NCBI RefSeq assembly: GCF_054482525.1
Contig: NZ_CM137006.1
Direction: 5' to 3' (one strand)
DNA length: 64,000 nucleotides
In this document: in pieces, positions 57,859-64,000 of the stretch
Numbering within the stretch: the stretch's first letter is position 1
Layout: every line of letters begins with the position of its first letter
The notes under the pieces: generated by a model
What the model was told of the DNA's origin: nothing
What the model saw: the letters and a program-made list of their open reading frames with translations, nothing else
Databases searched by the model: none
Position numbers and translations under genes: made by a program

Positions 57859-57934
57859 TGGCTCCTCTGACTGGACTCGAACCAGTGACATACGGATTAA
57901 CAGTCCGCCGTTCTACCGACTGAACTACAGAGGA
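57859..57934 (-). tRNA. asnV: tRNA-Asn (GUU)
   Basis: 76-nt sequence whose reverse complement is TCCTCTGTAGTTCAGTCGGTAGAACGGCGGACTGTTAATCCGTATGTCACTGGTTCGAGTCCAGTCAGAGGAGCCA; cloverleaf with GTT anticodon and CCA end. Confidence 0.95.
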
Positions 57935-60267: not shown

Positions 60268-60343
60268 TGGCTCCTCTGACTGGACTCGAACCAGTGACAT
60301 ACGGATTAACAGTCCGCCGTTCTACCGACTGAACTACAGAGGA
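60268..60343 (-). tRNA. asnU: tRNA-Asn (GUU)
   Basis: Identical 76-nt sequence to 57859..57934. Confidence 0.95.
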
Positions 60344-60503: not shown

Positions 60504-61991
60504 ATGTGGTTTCACTTTCTGCAATTAAGGTCGGCTTTGAATATCTCCTCTGCTTTACGCCAGGTTGTTCACGGCACTCGCTGGCACGCTAAACGCAAGA
60601 GCTACAAAGTGTTGTTCTGGCGCGAGATAACCCCGCTTGCTGTTCCTATCTTCATGGAGAATGCCTGTGTCCTGTTGATGGGGGTTCTGAGCACTTTTCT
60701 GGTCAGCTGGCTGGGAAAAGATGCGATGGCCGGCGTGGGATTGGCGGACAGCTTCAATATGGTCATTATGGCTTTTTTTGCAGCTATCGATCTTGGTACT
60801 ACTGTCGTTGTGGCATTTAGTCTCGGTAAGCGGGATCGACGACGAGCGAGGGTGGCGACGCGGCAGTCATTGGTGATCATGACGTTGTTTGCCGTACTGT
60901 TGGCAACGCTTATTCATCATTTTGGCGAACAAATTATTGATTTCGTCGCGGGTGATGCCACGACAGAAGTTAAAGCACTGGCGTTGACTTATCTGGAGCT
61001 GACGGTACTCAGTTATCCAGCAGCTGCCATCACTTTGATTGGTAGCGGGGCACTTCGTGGTGCAGGGAATACGAAAATACCGCTACTGATTAACGGTAGC
61101 CTGAATATTCTTAATATTATTATTAGCGGCATATTGATTTACGGCCTTTTCTCCTGGCCGGGACTGGGATTTGTCGGGGCTGGGTTGGGGTTAACCATTT
61201 CTCGTTATATTGGCGCAGTGGCAATTTTGTGGGTGCTGGCGATTGGTTTTAATCCTGCGCTAAGGATTTCGTTAAAGAGCTATTTTAAACCGCTGAATTT
61301 TAGCATTATCTGGGAAGTCATGGGGATTGGTATTCCAGCGAGTGTCGAATCAGTATTATTTACCAGTGGTCGGTTATTAACCCAAATGTTCGTTGCCGGG
61401 ATGGGGACCAGTGTTATTGCCGGGAATTTTATCGCGTTTTCAATTGCGGCTCTTATCAACTTACCCGGAAGTGCGCTCGGCTCTGCTTCTACGATCATTA
61501 CAGGCCGAAGGTTGGGGGTAGGGCAGATAGCGCAAGCAGAGATTCAGTTGCGGCATGTGTTCTGGCTGTCCACTCTTGGATTAACGGCCATCGCCTGGCT
61601 AACGGCTCCCTTTGCCGGGGTTATGGCATCGTTTTACACCCAGGATCCACAGGTTAAACATGTCGTTGTAATTCTGATTTGGCTAAATGCTTTATTTATG
61701 CCTATTTGGTCTGCCTCATGGGTGCTACCCGCTGGATTTAAGGGTGCTCGCGATGCCCGTTACGCCATGTGGGTTTCTATGTTGAGCATGTGGGGTTGCC
61801 GGGTTGTAGTCGGTTATGTGCTGGGAATCATGCTTGGTTGGGGTGTGGTTGGTGTCTGGTTGGGAATGTTTGCCGACTGGGCTGTGCGGGCCGTGCTGTT
61901 TTACTGGCGAATGGTTACTGGACGTTGGCTATGGAAATACCCTCGACCCGAGCCGCAAAAGTGTGAAAAAAAGCCAGTTGTGTCGGAATAA
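60504..61991 (+). CDS. yeeO: MATE-family efflux transporter YeeO
   Basis: ORF 60351..61991; start taken at MWFHFLQLRS (495 aa) because the longer ORF begins 8 bp after the tRNA; 12-TM MATE topology. Confidence 0.88.
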   Translation: MWFHFLQLRSALNISSALRQVVHGTRWHAKRKSYKVLFWREITPLAVPIFMENACVLLMGVLSTFLVSWLGKDAMAGVGLADSFNMVIMAFFAAIDLGTTVVVAFSLGKRDRRRARVATRQSLVIMTLFAVLLATLIHHFGEQIIDFVAGDATTEVKALALTYLELTVLSYPAAAITLIGSGALRGAGNTKIPLLINGSLNILNIIISGILIYGLFSWPGLGFVGAGLGLTISRYIGAVAILWVLAIGFNPALRISLKSYFKPLNFSIIWEVMGIGIPASVESVLFTSGRLLTQMFVAGMGTSVIAGNFIAFSIAALINLPGSALGSASTIITGRRLGVGQIAQAEIQLRHVFWLSTLGLTAIAWLTAPFAGVMASFYTQDPQVKHVVVILIWLNALFMPIWSASWVLPAGFKGARDARYAMWVSMLSMWGCRVVVGYVLGIMLGWGVVGVWLGMFADWAVRAVLFYWRMVTGRWLWKYPRPEPQKCEKKPVVSE

Positions 61992-62044
61992 ACGACAAAA
62001 TGCAGATTATTTCAGCAAACGATTTCAAATTTAAAAAACAGGCT

Positions 62045-62073
62045 TTGACATTGTGGATGGGCATCGCTAATAT
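62045..62073 (+). promoter_or_regulatory. Sigma-70 promoter of asnW (TTGACA-17 bp-TAATAT, GC-rich discriminator)
   Basis: ctttgacattgtggatgggcatcgctaatattcgcctcg read directly ~20 bp upstream of the tRNA. Confidence 0.7.
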
Positions 62074-62091
62074 TCGCCTCGTTCTCACGAT

Positions 62092-62167
62092 TCCTCTGTA
62101 GTTCAGTCGGTAGAACGGCGGACTGTTAATCCGTATGTCACTGGTTCGAGTCCAGTCAGAGGAGCCA
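62092..62167 (+). tRNA. asnW: tRNA-Asn (GUU)
   Basis: Third identical copy, opposite orientation to the other two. Confidence 0.95.
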
Positions 62168-62328
62168 AATTCAAGTTTTCATGCTTATCTGTACGTCTCT
62201 ATTTGTTTACGATTCAGTAAGTTAGCGTGAAAATCCTTCCCAGTGCGTATCTGGTTTTCTCTCTGCATCGGGATAATTTGGTGGTCAGATCTGGGGTCAG
62301 TTTGGTTCGATTCTGGAGTGACCCCCAA

Positions 62329-63591
62329 ATGTCTTTAAACGATTCTAAAATCCGCAAGTTAAAACCCTCTTCCCGTCCGGTAAAACTCTCCGACTCTCAC
62401 GGTCTGTATCTGCTCGTCAATCCGGGCGGTTCACGCATCTGGTATCTCAAATATCGTTTCAACGGAAAAGAATCCAGAGTCAGTCTTGGCGCATACCCGC
62501 TTGTCTCACTGGCAGAAGCCAGGCAACAGCGCGACGGTATCCGTAAGTTACTGGCGCAGAATATCAACCCGGCGCAGCAGCGCATGGCGGAGGAAGCGGC
62601 CTGCTCCCCTGAAAAGTGCTTTAAGGCAGTGGCGCTGGCCTGGCACAAAACCAACAAAAAATGGTCGGCTGATTATGCCGCCCGTATTCTCGCCAGTATG
62701 GAAAACCATATCTTCCCGGCGATTGGTCATCTGCCCGTTGCCACTCTTAAAACGCAGGATTTCACTGCTTTGTTGCGGGTTATCGAGGATAAAGGCTTTC
62801 TGGAAGTCGCGTCCCGAACCCGGCAGCAACTCAGCAACATCATGCGCTATGCCGTTCAGCAGGGGCTTACCGAAAGCAATCCGGCGCAGCATCTGGATGG
62901 CGTTGTCGCCTCACCCGTAAAGAACCACTACCCCGCGTTACTGCTGGAGCGGTTGCCCGAACTGCTTGGCCGCATCGGTGACTATCAGCAGGGCCGGGAG
63001 TTAACACGGCTGGCGGTGGTGCTGACGTTGCACCTGTTTATCCGTTCCAGCGAACTGCGTTTCGCCCGCTGGAGCGAGATCGATTTCAGGCACAAAATCT
63101 GGACCATCCCCGCCACCCGCGAGGCAATCGACAAAGTACGGTTTTCGGGGCGTGGCGCAAAAATACGTACCCCGCATATCGTGCCGCTCTCCCGCCAGGC
63201 GATTGCCATTCTGAAACAGATACAGGAGCTTTCCGGCCATCTGGATCTGGTGTTTCCCGGTGATCATAACTCGTACAAGCCAATGAGTGAAAACACCACC
63301 AACCGGGCGCTACGCCTGATGGGGTATGATACGAAAACTGAAATCTGCGGGCATGGACTCAGGGCGATGGCCTGTAGCGCCCTGGTGGAATCGGAGCTGT
63401 GGTCACGCGATACGGTGGAGCGGCAAATGAGCCACCAGGAGCGTAACAGCGTGCGGGCAGCCTATGTGCATAAAGCGGAGCATCTGGAGGCCAGAAAGGC
63501 CATGATGCAGTGGTGGTCGGATTATCTGGATGTGTGCCGCGAGGGGTATGTTGCGCCGTACATTTATGCCCGGCAGCATAAGGCAGCCTGA
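62329..63591 (+). CDS. P4-type tyrosine integrase (phage integrase family) adjacent to tRNA-Asn
   Basis: ORF 62227..63591; start at MSLNDSKIRKLKP (420 aa); N-terminal P4-integrase-like domain; C-terminal catalytic region with R...HxxR...Y context (HGLRAMACS..., RAAYVH). Confidence 0.9.
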   Translation: MSLNDSKIRKLKPSSRPVKLSDSHGLYLLVNPGGSRIWYLKYRFNGKESRVSLGAYPLVSLAEARQQRDGIRKLLAQNINPAQQRMAEEAACSPEKCFKAVALAWHKTNKKWSADYAARILASMENHIFPAIGHLPVATLKTQDFTALLRVIEDKGFLEVASRTRQQLSNIMRYAVQQGLTESNPAQHLDGVVASPVKNHYPALLLERLPELLGRIGDYQQGRELTRLAVVLTLHLFIRSSELRFARWSEIDFRHKIWTIPATREAIDKVRFSGRGAKIRTPHIVPLSRQAIAILKQIQELSGHLDLVFPGDHNSYKPMSENTTNRALRLMGYDTKTEICGHGLRAMACSALVESELWSRDTVERQMSHQERNSVRAAYVHKAEHLEARKAMMQWWSDYLDVCREGYVAPYIYARQHKAA

Positions 63592-64000
63592 ATCAGAAAT
63601 AGCGGAAATCATTAAAAATGTAAAAGCAGATCCTGATTGACCGGGATCTGCTTATTGTATTGAGAAGTATTACCATTTTTCTGTTATTATCAATCGGAAA
63701 GTATCTAAAAATATTTGTCCCCAAATAATTTTGGTGAAAACCAATCAATAAACCATTTATCAATAGGTAAGTACCGGAAATTATTCCAGTAGAATATTTT
63801 CAGGCGATTGCCTATTAATAAATACATTATTGATAGATAAGTGCCTTCTGTGATTTGCCCGCAAATCACAGAAGATGAAAACCTATCAATACGGGATATT
63901 TTCACGGAAATACCAATTAATACTCCAGAATATCTCCTGACCATATACTCTGAAACCTGTAAGAACTGCATCAGATATTGAGAGACCATATAGATATAAG

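Follow-up and report, generated by a model that had tools for sequence, protein, structure and literature searches.

A P4-type integrase beside asnW very probably marks the left end of a small, partly decayed tRNA islet with an Rhs polymorphic toxin and a likely immunity gene

The window, a single stretch of 64,000 nucleotides, has near its right end a tRNA-Asn (GTT) gene at positions 62092 to 62167 on the plus strand, which was called by ARAGORN and scores 72.6 bits with the Rfam tRNA model. The gene was identified as asnW by synteny with E. coli K-12, from the order nac-cbl-tRNA-yeeO-tRNA. A preliminary description of this DNA placed an integrase about 160 bp downstream of the tRNA, and the gap is 161 bp (62168 to 62328, plus strand). 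This gap is the first island DNA, as judged from the divergence from the empty site of K-12; the int promoter and arm-type sites are presumably located in it, and a simple sigma-70 scan of the segment returned no site. The integrase gene (62329 to 63591, plus strand; WP_000055679.1) is an uninterrupted open reading frame of 420 amino acids, starting at the ATG at 62329 that RefSeq has chosen and that is common to the pks and HPI integrases. All three domains of a P4-type enzyme are matched in Pfam (Arm-DNA-bind_3, Phage_int_M and Phage_integrase), and the R-K-H-R-H-Y residues of the tyrosine recombinases are present as R239, K278, H342, R345, H369 and Y379. The integrase is thus complete, as first described, and the frameshift that had been named as an argument for a degenerate remnant is absent from it.

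The DNA to the right of the window edge was read from E. coli 19KM1776 (NZ_CP151009.1), in which the window corresponds to positions 64019 to 128018, colinear and at 100% identity. Window positions 1 to 25000 match 64019 to 89018 in a single piece at 100%, and positions 61900 to 64000 match 125918 to 128018; because of this colinearity the sequence past the window edge is readable. Positions in this extended sequence carry the prefix L002, where L002 2152-2171 equals window 62152 to 62171. A repeat search and the comparison with K-12 place the attL core at the latter positions, as the 20 bp CCAGTCAGAGGAGCCAAATT that comprise the last 16 nucleotides of the tRNA gene followed by AATT. The opposite end of the island, 10.65 kb further right and outside the window, carries an exact second copy of CCAGTCAGAGGAGCCAAATT (L002 12801-12820). 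The direct repeat is exact over 20 bp and matches at 26 of 28 positions on extension; the number of chance matches expected in shuffled sequences is zero. Between the two repeats lies an insertion of 10,649 bp, and the core gene yeeN follows about 450 bp beyond its right end. K-12 provides the empty site, where asnW leads straight into the DNA found to the right of attR. This empty site aligns colinearly with attL on the side of the tRNA and with attR on the side of yeeN, and divergence between K-12 and the island starts immediately after the core. A restored attB would be asnW joined directly to ...AAATTTTAGTTTTGAGAC. The 3' end of asnW is the integration target of the island, and the genomic-island boundary proposed at this tRNA is genuine, including the suggested far-end repeat of the tRNA 3' end. 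[quoted passage not shown]

Past the integrase stop the composition turns sharply AT-rich, as had been described: GC content drops from 0.558 in the integrase to 0.325 in 63592 to 64000, as compared to 0.475 for the whole window. The accompanying proposal that AT-rich cargo begins at the window edge did not hold, since this DNA is a non-coding spacer of 1.36 kb with indels between copies. The spacer comprises 1,363 bp, of which the first 409 (63592 to 64000) are inside the window and the remainder extends to L002 4954, and it separates the integrase from a convergent second recombinase gene of the Integrase_1 type. No gene is annotated in the spacer in any RefSeq (PGAP) or PLSDB record examined, and the spacer has no Rfam match. 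Its copies are about 91% identical and differ by indels of 1, 14 and 70 nucleotides. The most conserved segment, Salmonella included, is a terminator-like hairpin with a 12-bp stem and a T-rich tail located just 3' of the int stop (63624 to 63653, plus strand). A hidden gene was considered and rejected: the three minus-strand open reading frames (94, 77 and 64 amino acids) have no NCBIfam or PHROGs matches and indels separate the copies. The similar peptide strings seen among these frames are due to an underlying DNA repeat of 131 nucleotides. Origin of the spacer from a known phage or plasmid was also discarded, as there was no phage match and a single weak match in Salmonella.

The first of the two paralogous 131-nucleotide repeats occupies 63793 to 63923 and the second lies outside the window at L002 4021-4151. 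The first contains, at 63845 to 63874, the perfect palindrome CTTCTGTGATTTGC-CC-GCAAATCACAGAAG. The two palindromes raise the alternative that the spacer is itself functional, either as a small structured RNA or as a site where the neighboring Integrase_1-type recombinase binds or recombines. Each 131-nucleotide repeat holds a perfect palindrome with 14-bp arms, the differences between the two copies are matched on both arms, the folding z-scores range from -4.8 to -5.9, and the motif is unique within the window with none expected by chance. However, any palindrome folds well on both strands by construction, the palindrome region has no Rfam match, and the adjacent recombinase is frameshifted in this strain. 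Furthermore, in 1344_LBHALD one of the palindrome copies has a mismatch that is not compensated, and the palindromes are absent from the spacers of Salmonella and SCU-485 despite conserved flanking genes, which indicates that the 131-nucleotide repeats are lineage-specific and led us to reject a conserved recombination site or RNA. A function of the spacer is accordingly quite improbable. An invertible switch, a lead taken from a paper on Fim inversion that names asnW, was dropped as well; the paper reports an asnW/asnV inversion only (PMC6458436).

Within the islet the order is integrase, 1.36-kb spacer, second recombinase (frameshifted), Ner/SfsB-like regulator, a frameshifted open reading frame, Rhs gene and a gene for a TPR/Sel1-like protein. 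The second recombinase has Integrase_1 and Phage_int_SAM_2 domains and is preceded by an EFASI RNA motif (100.8 bits against a Rfam gathering score of 51.2). A C4-type antisense RNA (62.2 against a gathering score of 45) precedes an open reading frame of 153 amino acids, with sub-threshold a1/b1-target and isrK-like matches as neighbors. As in other enterobacterial islands, the gene immediately after EFASI is an integrase gene, in agreement with the Rfam description (PMC12370729); unlike in the known EFASI contexts, the Rfam scan found no STAXI motif nearby. The C4 element recalls the C4/IsrK-type modules of enterobacterial islands and of P1/P7-type phages, and precedes here a small open reading frame and a Ner-like regulator. 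The second recombinase and the 153-residue frame were both confirmed to be frameshifted in this strain. The reading frames 3' of EFASI and C4 being disrupted, these RNA modules are probably decaying. As to the choice between a current island and a degenerate remnant, the element is in between: the ends and the integrase are intact, whereas the interior is decaying, with two backbone genes frameshifted.

The main cargo is the Rhs protein of 1,393 amino acids, whose residues 1-1254 match NCBIfam RHS_core with 2595 bits. Further matches are to DUF6531 (clear), the RHS domain, YD_repeat and, at 1177-1254, Rhs_assc_core; a match to PAAR_motif is weak (E 0.23). The protein has the build of a classical Rhs polymorphic toxin, in which a DUF6531/PAAR-like N-terminus precedes a YD-repeat shell. 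The DPxGL cleavage motif stands ahead of the variable tip and reads ...NYADPLGL/AVDIN.... The core is GC-rich (0.55-0.64) and the tip is AT-rich. The features shared with the classical E. coli Rhs elements and T6SS Rhs toxins are RHS_core, a GC-rich core with an AT-rich tip, DPLGL and a small gene in the immunity position. The usual setting of Rhs loci is chromosomal. Unlike the classical elements, the Rhs gene of the islet is inside a tRNA-integrated element with its own integrase, has no adjacent vgrG and encodes a tip for which there is no Pfam model. The annotation of the islet contains neither vgrG nor orphan tips.

The C-terminal tip comprises 139 residues (1255-1393 of the Rhs protein), and its structure is predicted with a pLDDT of 97.7. 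Sequence and profile searches of Pfam, NCBIfam and the PDB gave no match, and the tip was identified by fold search alone, with a moderate match to C80-like domains (TM score 0.5 on the query, 8-17% identity). His32 and Cys72 (tip numbering) do not vary among 35 sequences; in the model they come after strands 26-30 and 66-70, respectively, which are consecutive central strands. When the Pfam models Peptidase_C80 and DUF4347 were compared with these family members, 4 of the 35 gave E values of 0.1 or less and none reached 0.001; such sub-threshold matches place the relation to C80 at the fold level only. The tip is predicted from the model to be a compact clan-CD, C80/caspase-like His-Cys protease domain. 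The tip forms a distinct family, and a large one: an exhaustive search returned 1,189 homologues, with more than 1,000 cluster representatives, in contrast to a word-indexed search that returned 7 and falsely suggested rarity.

The C80 cysteine protease domains (CPDs) of V. cholerae MARTX and of C. difficile TcdA/TcdB are InsP6-activated self-processing domains of about 200-250 residues, compared with 139 in the islet tip. The closest known systems also include the 'Tox-Caspase' of Zhang et al. 2012, and the tip is structurally close to the P. aeruginosa T6SS effectors Tce1 and Tce2. These two are Hcp-loaded cargo and have no immunity genes, whereas the islet tip forms the C-terminus of Rhs and has the TPR/Sel1-like gene behind it. 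As Tce1 and Tce2, without immunity genes, are non-toxic in E. coli (PMC13323088), the target of the islet tip might not be bacterial.

The gene that follows Rhs encodes 182 amino acids with weak TPR/Sel1 matches. In another genome the gene after a tip with 53% identity encodes a Sel1-like protein with 30% identity to that of the islet; the small protein behind a second tip homologue is unrelated. The TPR/Sel1-like protein is most likely a candidate immunity protein, an assignment that is mainly positional in view of the weak domain matches and of the unrelated protein behind the second homologue. Homologous tips also occur in VgrG-...-Rhs operons, directly behind vgrG. Given the fold and the invariant dyad, as well as the gene order and this VgrG linkage of the homologues, we infer that a T6SS would carry the protease tip into neighboring cells and that the downstream protein would protect the producer. 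A nearly identical islet is present in PCN033 (100.0% identity; bit score 19662 versus 19673 for the self-match), a strain with an experimentally functional T6SS; the papers that describe it mention Rhs genes in the T6SS cluster only (PMC4882540, PMC6363058). A literature search for an Rhs island at asnW returned nothing relevant.

Taken together, the integrase very probably marks attL of a 10,649-bp, tRNA-integrated and partly decayed islet with an Rhs polymorphic toxin and a likely immunity gene. Mobility and toxicity are read here from sequences and structural models. The islet is an ordinary representative of known kinds.

Large islands at asn-tRNA genes offer a different explanation, in which the integrase would be the left end of a virulence island like pks (colibactin) or HPI (yersiniabactin). 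In CFT073 the pks island indeed lies at the same tRNA, asnW, as was given by way of example in the preliminary description, with an integrase at the corresponding place; in many ExPEC strains asnW is associated with colibactin and asnT with HPI (PMC7545054). Both islands share with the islet the target class (the asn-tRNA 3' end) and a P4-type integrase about 160 bp on in the same orientation, and the integrases belong to one family. The integrase comparison that had been proposed gave only 71% amino acid identity to both the pks and the HPI enzymes, and the integrase DNA is only about 72% identical to that of the pks and HPI genomes. Moreover, the 10.65 kb that precede yeeN in 19KM1776 contain no clb or ybt genes, and among the matches listed the near-identical islets all carry this small gene set. 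Identity with pks was rejected, as CFT073 has int followed by clbS-clbN and 19KM1776 has no clb genes; identity with HPI was likewise rejected, as the HPI locus has int followed by ybtS-ybtP, and ybt, irp and fyuA are absent here. Compared to pks (54 kb) and HPI (about 30-32 kb) (PMC7545054), the islet has 10.65 kb, a single Rhs toxin module and a distinct integrase lineage. A large virulence island is thus exceedingly improbable, and the large or interesting cargo expected past the window proved to be a small islet with a GC-rich Rhs core as its main content. The ROD21/EARL islands of Salmonella and other Enterobacteriaceae, compared by description, similarly have an asn-tRNA target and an adjoining integrase (PMC7074111); in contrast to these, no H-NS homologue, TIR protein or excisionase/RDF is annotated in the islet.

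The complete islet was found in 207 of 5,426 complete E. coli genomes. Its backbone comprises int, the AT-rich spacer, the EFASI-preceded convergent Integrase_1-type gene, a small open reading frame, the Ner/SfsB-like regulator and the C4-preceded frame of 153 residues, and also underlies islets of other E. coli, at asnT, asnV and asnW, as well as a Salmonella record. It recurs at asnT and asnV in MDK9L1, 1344_LBHALD and SCU-485, and also in Salmonella serovar India. This recurrence at three asn-tRNA loci and in Salmonella, along with the CCAGTCAGAGGAGCCAAATT core that is also present at asnU and asnV within the window, could mean that the element is currently mobile, with excision and transfer still allowed, perhaps through an excisionase in trans, and with the copies at asnT, asnV and asnW reflecting repeated integration. 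The intact integrase with its catalytic residues and the exact 20-bp repeats are compatible with residual mobility. Against current mobility, the annotation and the NCBIfam and PHROGs scans of the open reading frames revealed no excisionase/RDF (Xis/AlpA-type), transfer or replication genes in the islet, and two backbone genes are frameshifted. In addition, other strains have backbone copies at asnT and at asnV that carry an identical Q177* lesion in the integrase, so that this lineage came to occupy more than one locus with no integrase of its own. A known alternative route is homologous recombination among the identical asn-tRNA genes, and an asnW/asnV inversion has been described (PMC6458436). 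A currently mobile element is therefore unlikely. The frameshifts in the second recombinase and in the 153-residue frame and the lack of an annotated excisionase suggest instead that the islet probably no longer moves, or does so very rarely.

Besides the Rhs protein of the present islet with its clan-CD protease tip, the backbone was found to carry a DUF4329 tip with an NTF2 immunity protein, VgrG and PAAR fragments, and STM2901/DUF1493. A broader reading, which we offer tentatively and with some doubt, is that the backbone represents an undescribed family of small asn-tRNA islets of Escherichia and Salmonella, which would serve as interchangeable carriers of T6SS effector/immunity cassettes and would move between asn-tRNA copies after death of the integrase; the tip would then be a minimal C80-like branch without a Pfam model, serving as a toxin between bacteria and countered by a Sel1-type inhibitor.

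An integrase at asnW need not mean colibactin or another large virulence island, and here it belongs to a small competition islet, which is relevant to genome screening that uses integrase/tRNA junctions as markers. The tip family points to compact clan-CD protease-like toxin domains that are missed by current Pfam models, and the E. coli tip with its candidate immunity protein may provide a convenient system for target finding. The presence of the backbone at different asn-tRNA copies, some with the identical dead integrase, is an example of the spread of an islet without its own recombinase.

Three tRNA-Asn (GTT) genes, located by ARAGORN and named by comparison with K-12, lie inside 4.3 kb and have identical ends: asnV (57859-57934, minus strand), asnU (60268-60343, minus strand) and asnW (62092-62167, plus strand), with nac, cbl and yeeO as the surrounding ORFs. 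The full 20-bp attachment core is present at each of them because AATT adjoins each tRNA; the cores at asnU and asnV are unoccupied, and asnW is the sole occupied one in the genome of the window. The asnW tRNA is followed after 161 bp by an integrase ORF that extends from the RefSeq start (ATG at 62329, yielding 420 aa) to a stop at 63591. The protein begins with MSLND, as do the pks and HPI integrases, exhibits the Pfam domains Arm-DNA-bind_3, Phage_int_M and Phage_integrase, and contains all of R239, K278, H342, R345, H369 and Y379. GC content falls from 0.558 in the integrase gene to 0.325 across 63592-64000, and the preliminary description of an integrase beside tRNA-Asn with an AT-rich turn after its stop was accurate.

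A 2.1-kb query spanning the junction gave 100% matches in several complete E. coli genomes. Window 1-25000 corresponds in one piece, at 100%, to NZ_CP151009.1 64019-89018, and window 61900-64000 to 125918-128018 of the same record; the window is therefore colinear with 64019-128018 of strain 19KM1776, a rectal isolate from a dog in Switzerland. Sequence past the right edge was read from a 19KM1776 segment termed L002 (NZ_CP151009.1 124019-150018; L002 coordinate = window coordinate - 60000). Window 1-25000, the colanic-acid/O-antigen-side region, matches PCN033 and SCU-102 at 99.8% in two pieces across ~32.5 kb, and these strains therefore carry ~7.5 kb extra relative to that of the window.

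The 3'-terminal 16 nt of the tRNA and the adjoining AATT make up CCAGTCAGAGGAGCCAAATT, of which an exact second copy occurs at L002 12801-12820, ~450 bp ahead of yeeN, where none is expected by chance. In K-12, asnW continues directly into the sequence 3' of the second core copy in 19KM1776, whereas the sequence past the first copy is unrelated between the two strains. The repeat at both ends and the empty K-12 site thus define an insertion of 10,649 bp, L002 2172-12820, whose attL and attR cores are intact; yeeN, amn and shiA, genes of the core genome, come directly to its right. The island boundary postulated at asnW is real, the anticipated far repeat of the tRNA 3' end being exact over 20 bp, and the islet it bounds is small and partly decayed.

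A large island of the pks or HPI type, which had been cited as examples for tRNA-Asn loci, is not what occupies the site. In CFT073 the genes after the pks integrase at asnW are clbS through clbN, and an HPI locus has ybtS through ybtP in that position; the islet carries none of this cargo, and its integrase is only 71% identical in protein sequence to each of the two (DNA ~72%). It is a third lineage of the asn-tRNA-targeting family. The asnW site is listed as that of colibactin in E. coli (PMC7545054) and of ROD21 in Salmonella (PMC7074111); in the searchable literature, no Rhs islet was found described for this site.

The AT-rich DNA with which the window ends, expected to be the beginning of the cargo, is a spacer of 1,363 bp (window 63592 to L002 4954; GC 0.37-0.43). 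No gene is annotated in it in any record examined, its ORFs have no family matches, and searches returned no Rfam match, no phage match and one weak match in the plasmid collection. The stretch is not cargo; the bulk of the islet is GC-rich, and AT-rich DNA returns only around the Rhs tip and the putative immunity gene. Four spacer copies are ~91% identical and differ by 1-, 14- and 70-nt indels. A terminator-like hairpin for int (63624-63653) at the start of the spacer is its best-kept part in Salmonella. Two paralogous 131-nt repeats (window 63793-63923 and L002 4021-4151), unique within the window, each contain a perfect palindrome with 14-bp arms, at 63845-63874 in the first; where the two copies differ, a change on one arm is matched on the other, and folding is far above that of shuffles on either strand. 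Neither repeats nor palindromes exist in the spacers of Salmonella and SCU-485, which makes them lineage-specific and of little functional weight.

Right of the integrase in 19KM1776, the 1,363 bp are followed by a minus-strand 'phage integrase N-terminal domain' gene with a frameshift, an ORF of 52 aa, two further minus-strand genes (first one for a helix-turn-helix protein, then a hypothetical one that is frameshifted), an 'RHS element core protein' of 1,393 aa and a TPR protein of 182 aa; the arrangement is the same in PCN033. The second recombinase is frameshifted past residue 192, and 1 nt is missing from the 153-aa ORF. GC content is 0.54-0.60 in the backbone, 0.55-0.64 in the Rhs core and 0.32-0.36 in the region of the Rhs tip and putative immunity gene. 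Rfam scanning revealed two RNAs that RefSeq does not annotate. An EFASI RNA (RF02957; L002 5701-5828, equivalent to window 65701-65828; minus strand; 100.8 bits, gathering score 51.2) immediately precedes the gene of the frameshifted Integrase_1-type recombinase, in agreement with what PMC12370729 cites from Rfam; the scan of the 19KM1776 copy gave no STAXI motif near it. A C4 antisense RNA (RF01695; 62.2 bits, gathering score 45) and neighbouring sub-threshold a1/b1-target and isrK-like matches occupy L002 7261-7349 and 7371-7446 (minus strand), upstream of the 153-aa ORF that is frameshifted and of a Ner/SfsB-like regulator; the group resembles a P1/P7-type immunity-like module.

Residues 1-1254 of the Rhs protein match the NCBIfam RHS_core equivalog at 2595 bits; YD repeats and an Rhs-associated core are recognised, as are DUF6531 and a weak PAAR motif at the N-terminus. 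Its core terminates at DPLGL, followed by a 139-aa tip with no match in Pfam, NCBIfam or PDB sequences. An exhaustive HMMER search yielded tip homologues in 1,189 cluster representatives (E<=1e-3), found at the very C-terminal end of proteins the size of Rhs, immediately after DPxGL, as short stand-alone proteins, or as 3-6 tandem or dispersed copies in giant proteins of about 2,800-6,600 aa from other organisms (P0011-P0013, P0019-P0023). H32, G33 and C72 are invariant across a 35-sequence alignment, and the AlphaFold2 model of the tip is very confident (pLDDT 97.7, pTM 0.90). Both of the two sampled homologues lie in a VgrG-...-Rhs operon context, one followed by a Sel1-like protein 30% identical to the islet TPR protein and the other by an unrelated small protein. 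As precedents among described effectors, Tce1 and Tce2 are putative TcdB-like proteases, Tce2 being toxic to yeast in a Cys-dependent manner (PMC13323088), and 'Tox-Caspase' domains at polymorphic-toxin C-termini were listed by Zhang et al. 2012 (PMC3482391). The Rhs toxin with its putative immunity partner is the only evident working payload of the islet.

Of 5,426 complete E. coli genomes, 207 contain the complete islet at a coverage of at least 80%. Among the matches listed, the gene set is the same in 60 of 60, identity is 98.5-100%, and sources include dogs, pigs, chickens, humans and seawater. The PCN033 copy is nearly identical (100.0%; 19662 bits, compared with 19673 for the self-match), and the T6SS of that strain is functional (PMC4882540, PMC6363058). 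None of the islet components is of a new type, and many public genomes already contain the sequence in annotated form.

Divergent copies of the integrase and spacer (DNA identity 83-95%) occur at asnT and asnV of other strains. All copies share a left-end unit of int, spacer, a convergent 294-aa recombinase (Phage_int_SAM_2 and Integrase_1) and a small ORF; the Ner/SfsB-like HTH gene (110 bits) and the ~153-aa ORF are found in SCU-485, the Salmonella record and 19KM1776. That record, from serovar India (NZ_CP022016.1, 285290-295738) and labelled a 473-kb non-mobilizable plasmid, contains an intact backbone; an additional 'phage integrase N-terminal domain' gene lies upstream of it. Cargo varies from copy to copy: a DUF4329 toxin fragment with an NTF2-fold immunity protein, MazEF, VgrG and PAAR fragments, STM2901 and DUF1493 proteins, or the Rhs module in 19KM1776. 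An identical Q177* stop inactivates the P4-type integrase in MDK9L1 at asnT and asnV (L006 1569-2831 and 16162-17424) and in 1344_LBHALD at asnT (L007 16161-17423); that lineage therefore reached at least two tRNA loci with no integrase of its own, which implies that the backbone spread among asn-tRNA loci after integrase inactivation. Recombination between identical tRNA genes does occur, as manifested by the asnW/asnV inversion (PMC6458436). In CFT073 (L004 1639-5947) the asnV-asnW segment is inverted relative to K-12 and the window, with yeeN adjoining tRNA-Asn and then nac, which agrees with that polymorphism. What deserves attention is a shared asn-tRNA islet backbone with variable T6SS-related cargo, and a compact, predicted clan-CD protease-like tip family without a Pfam model.
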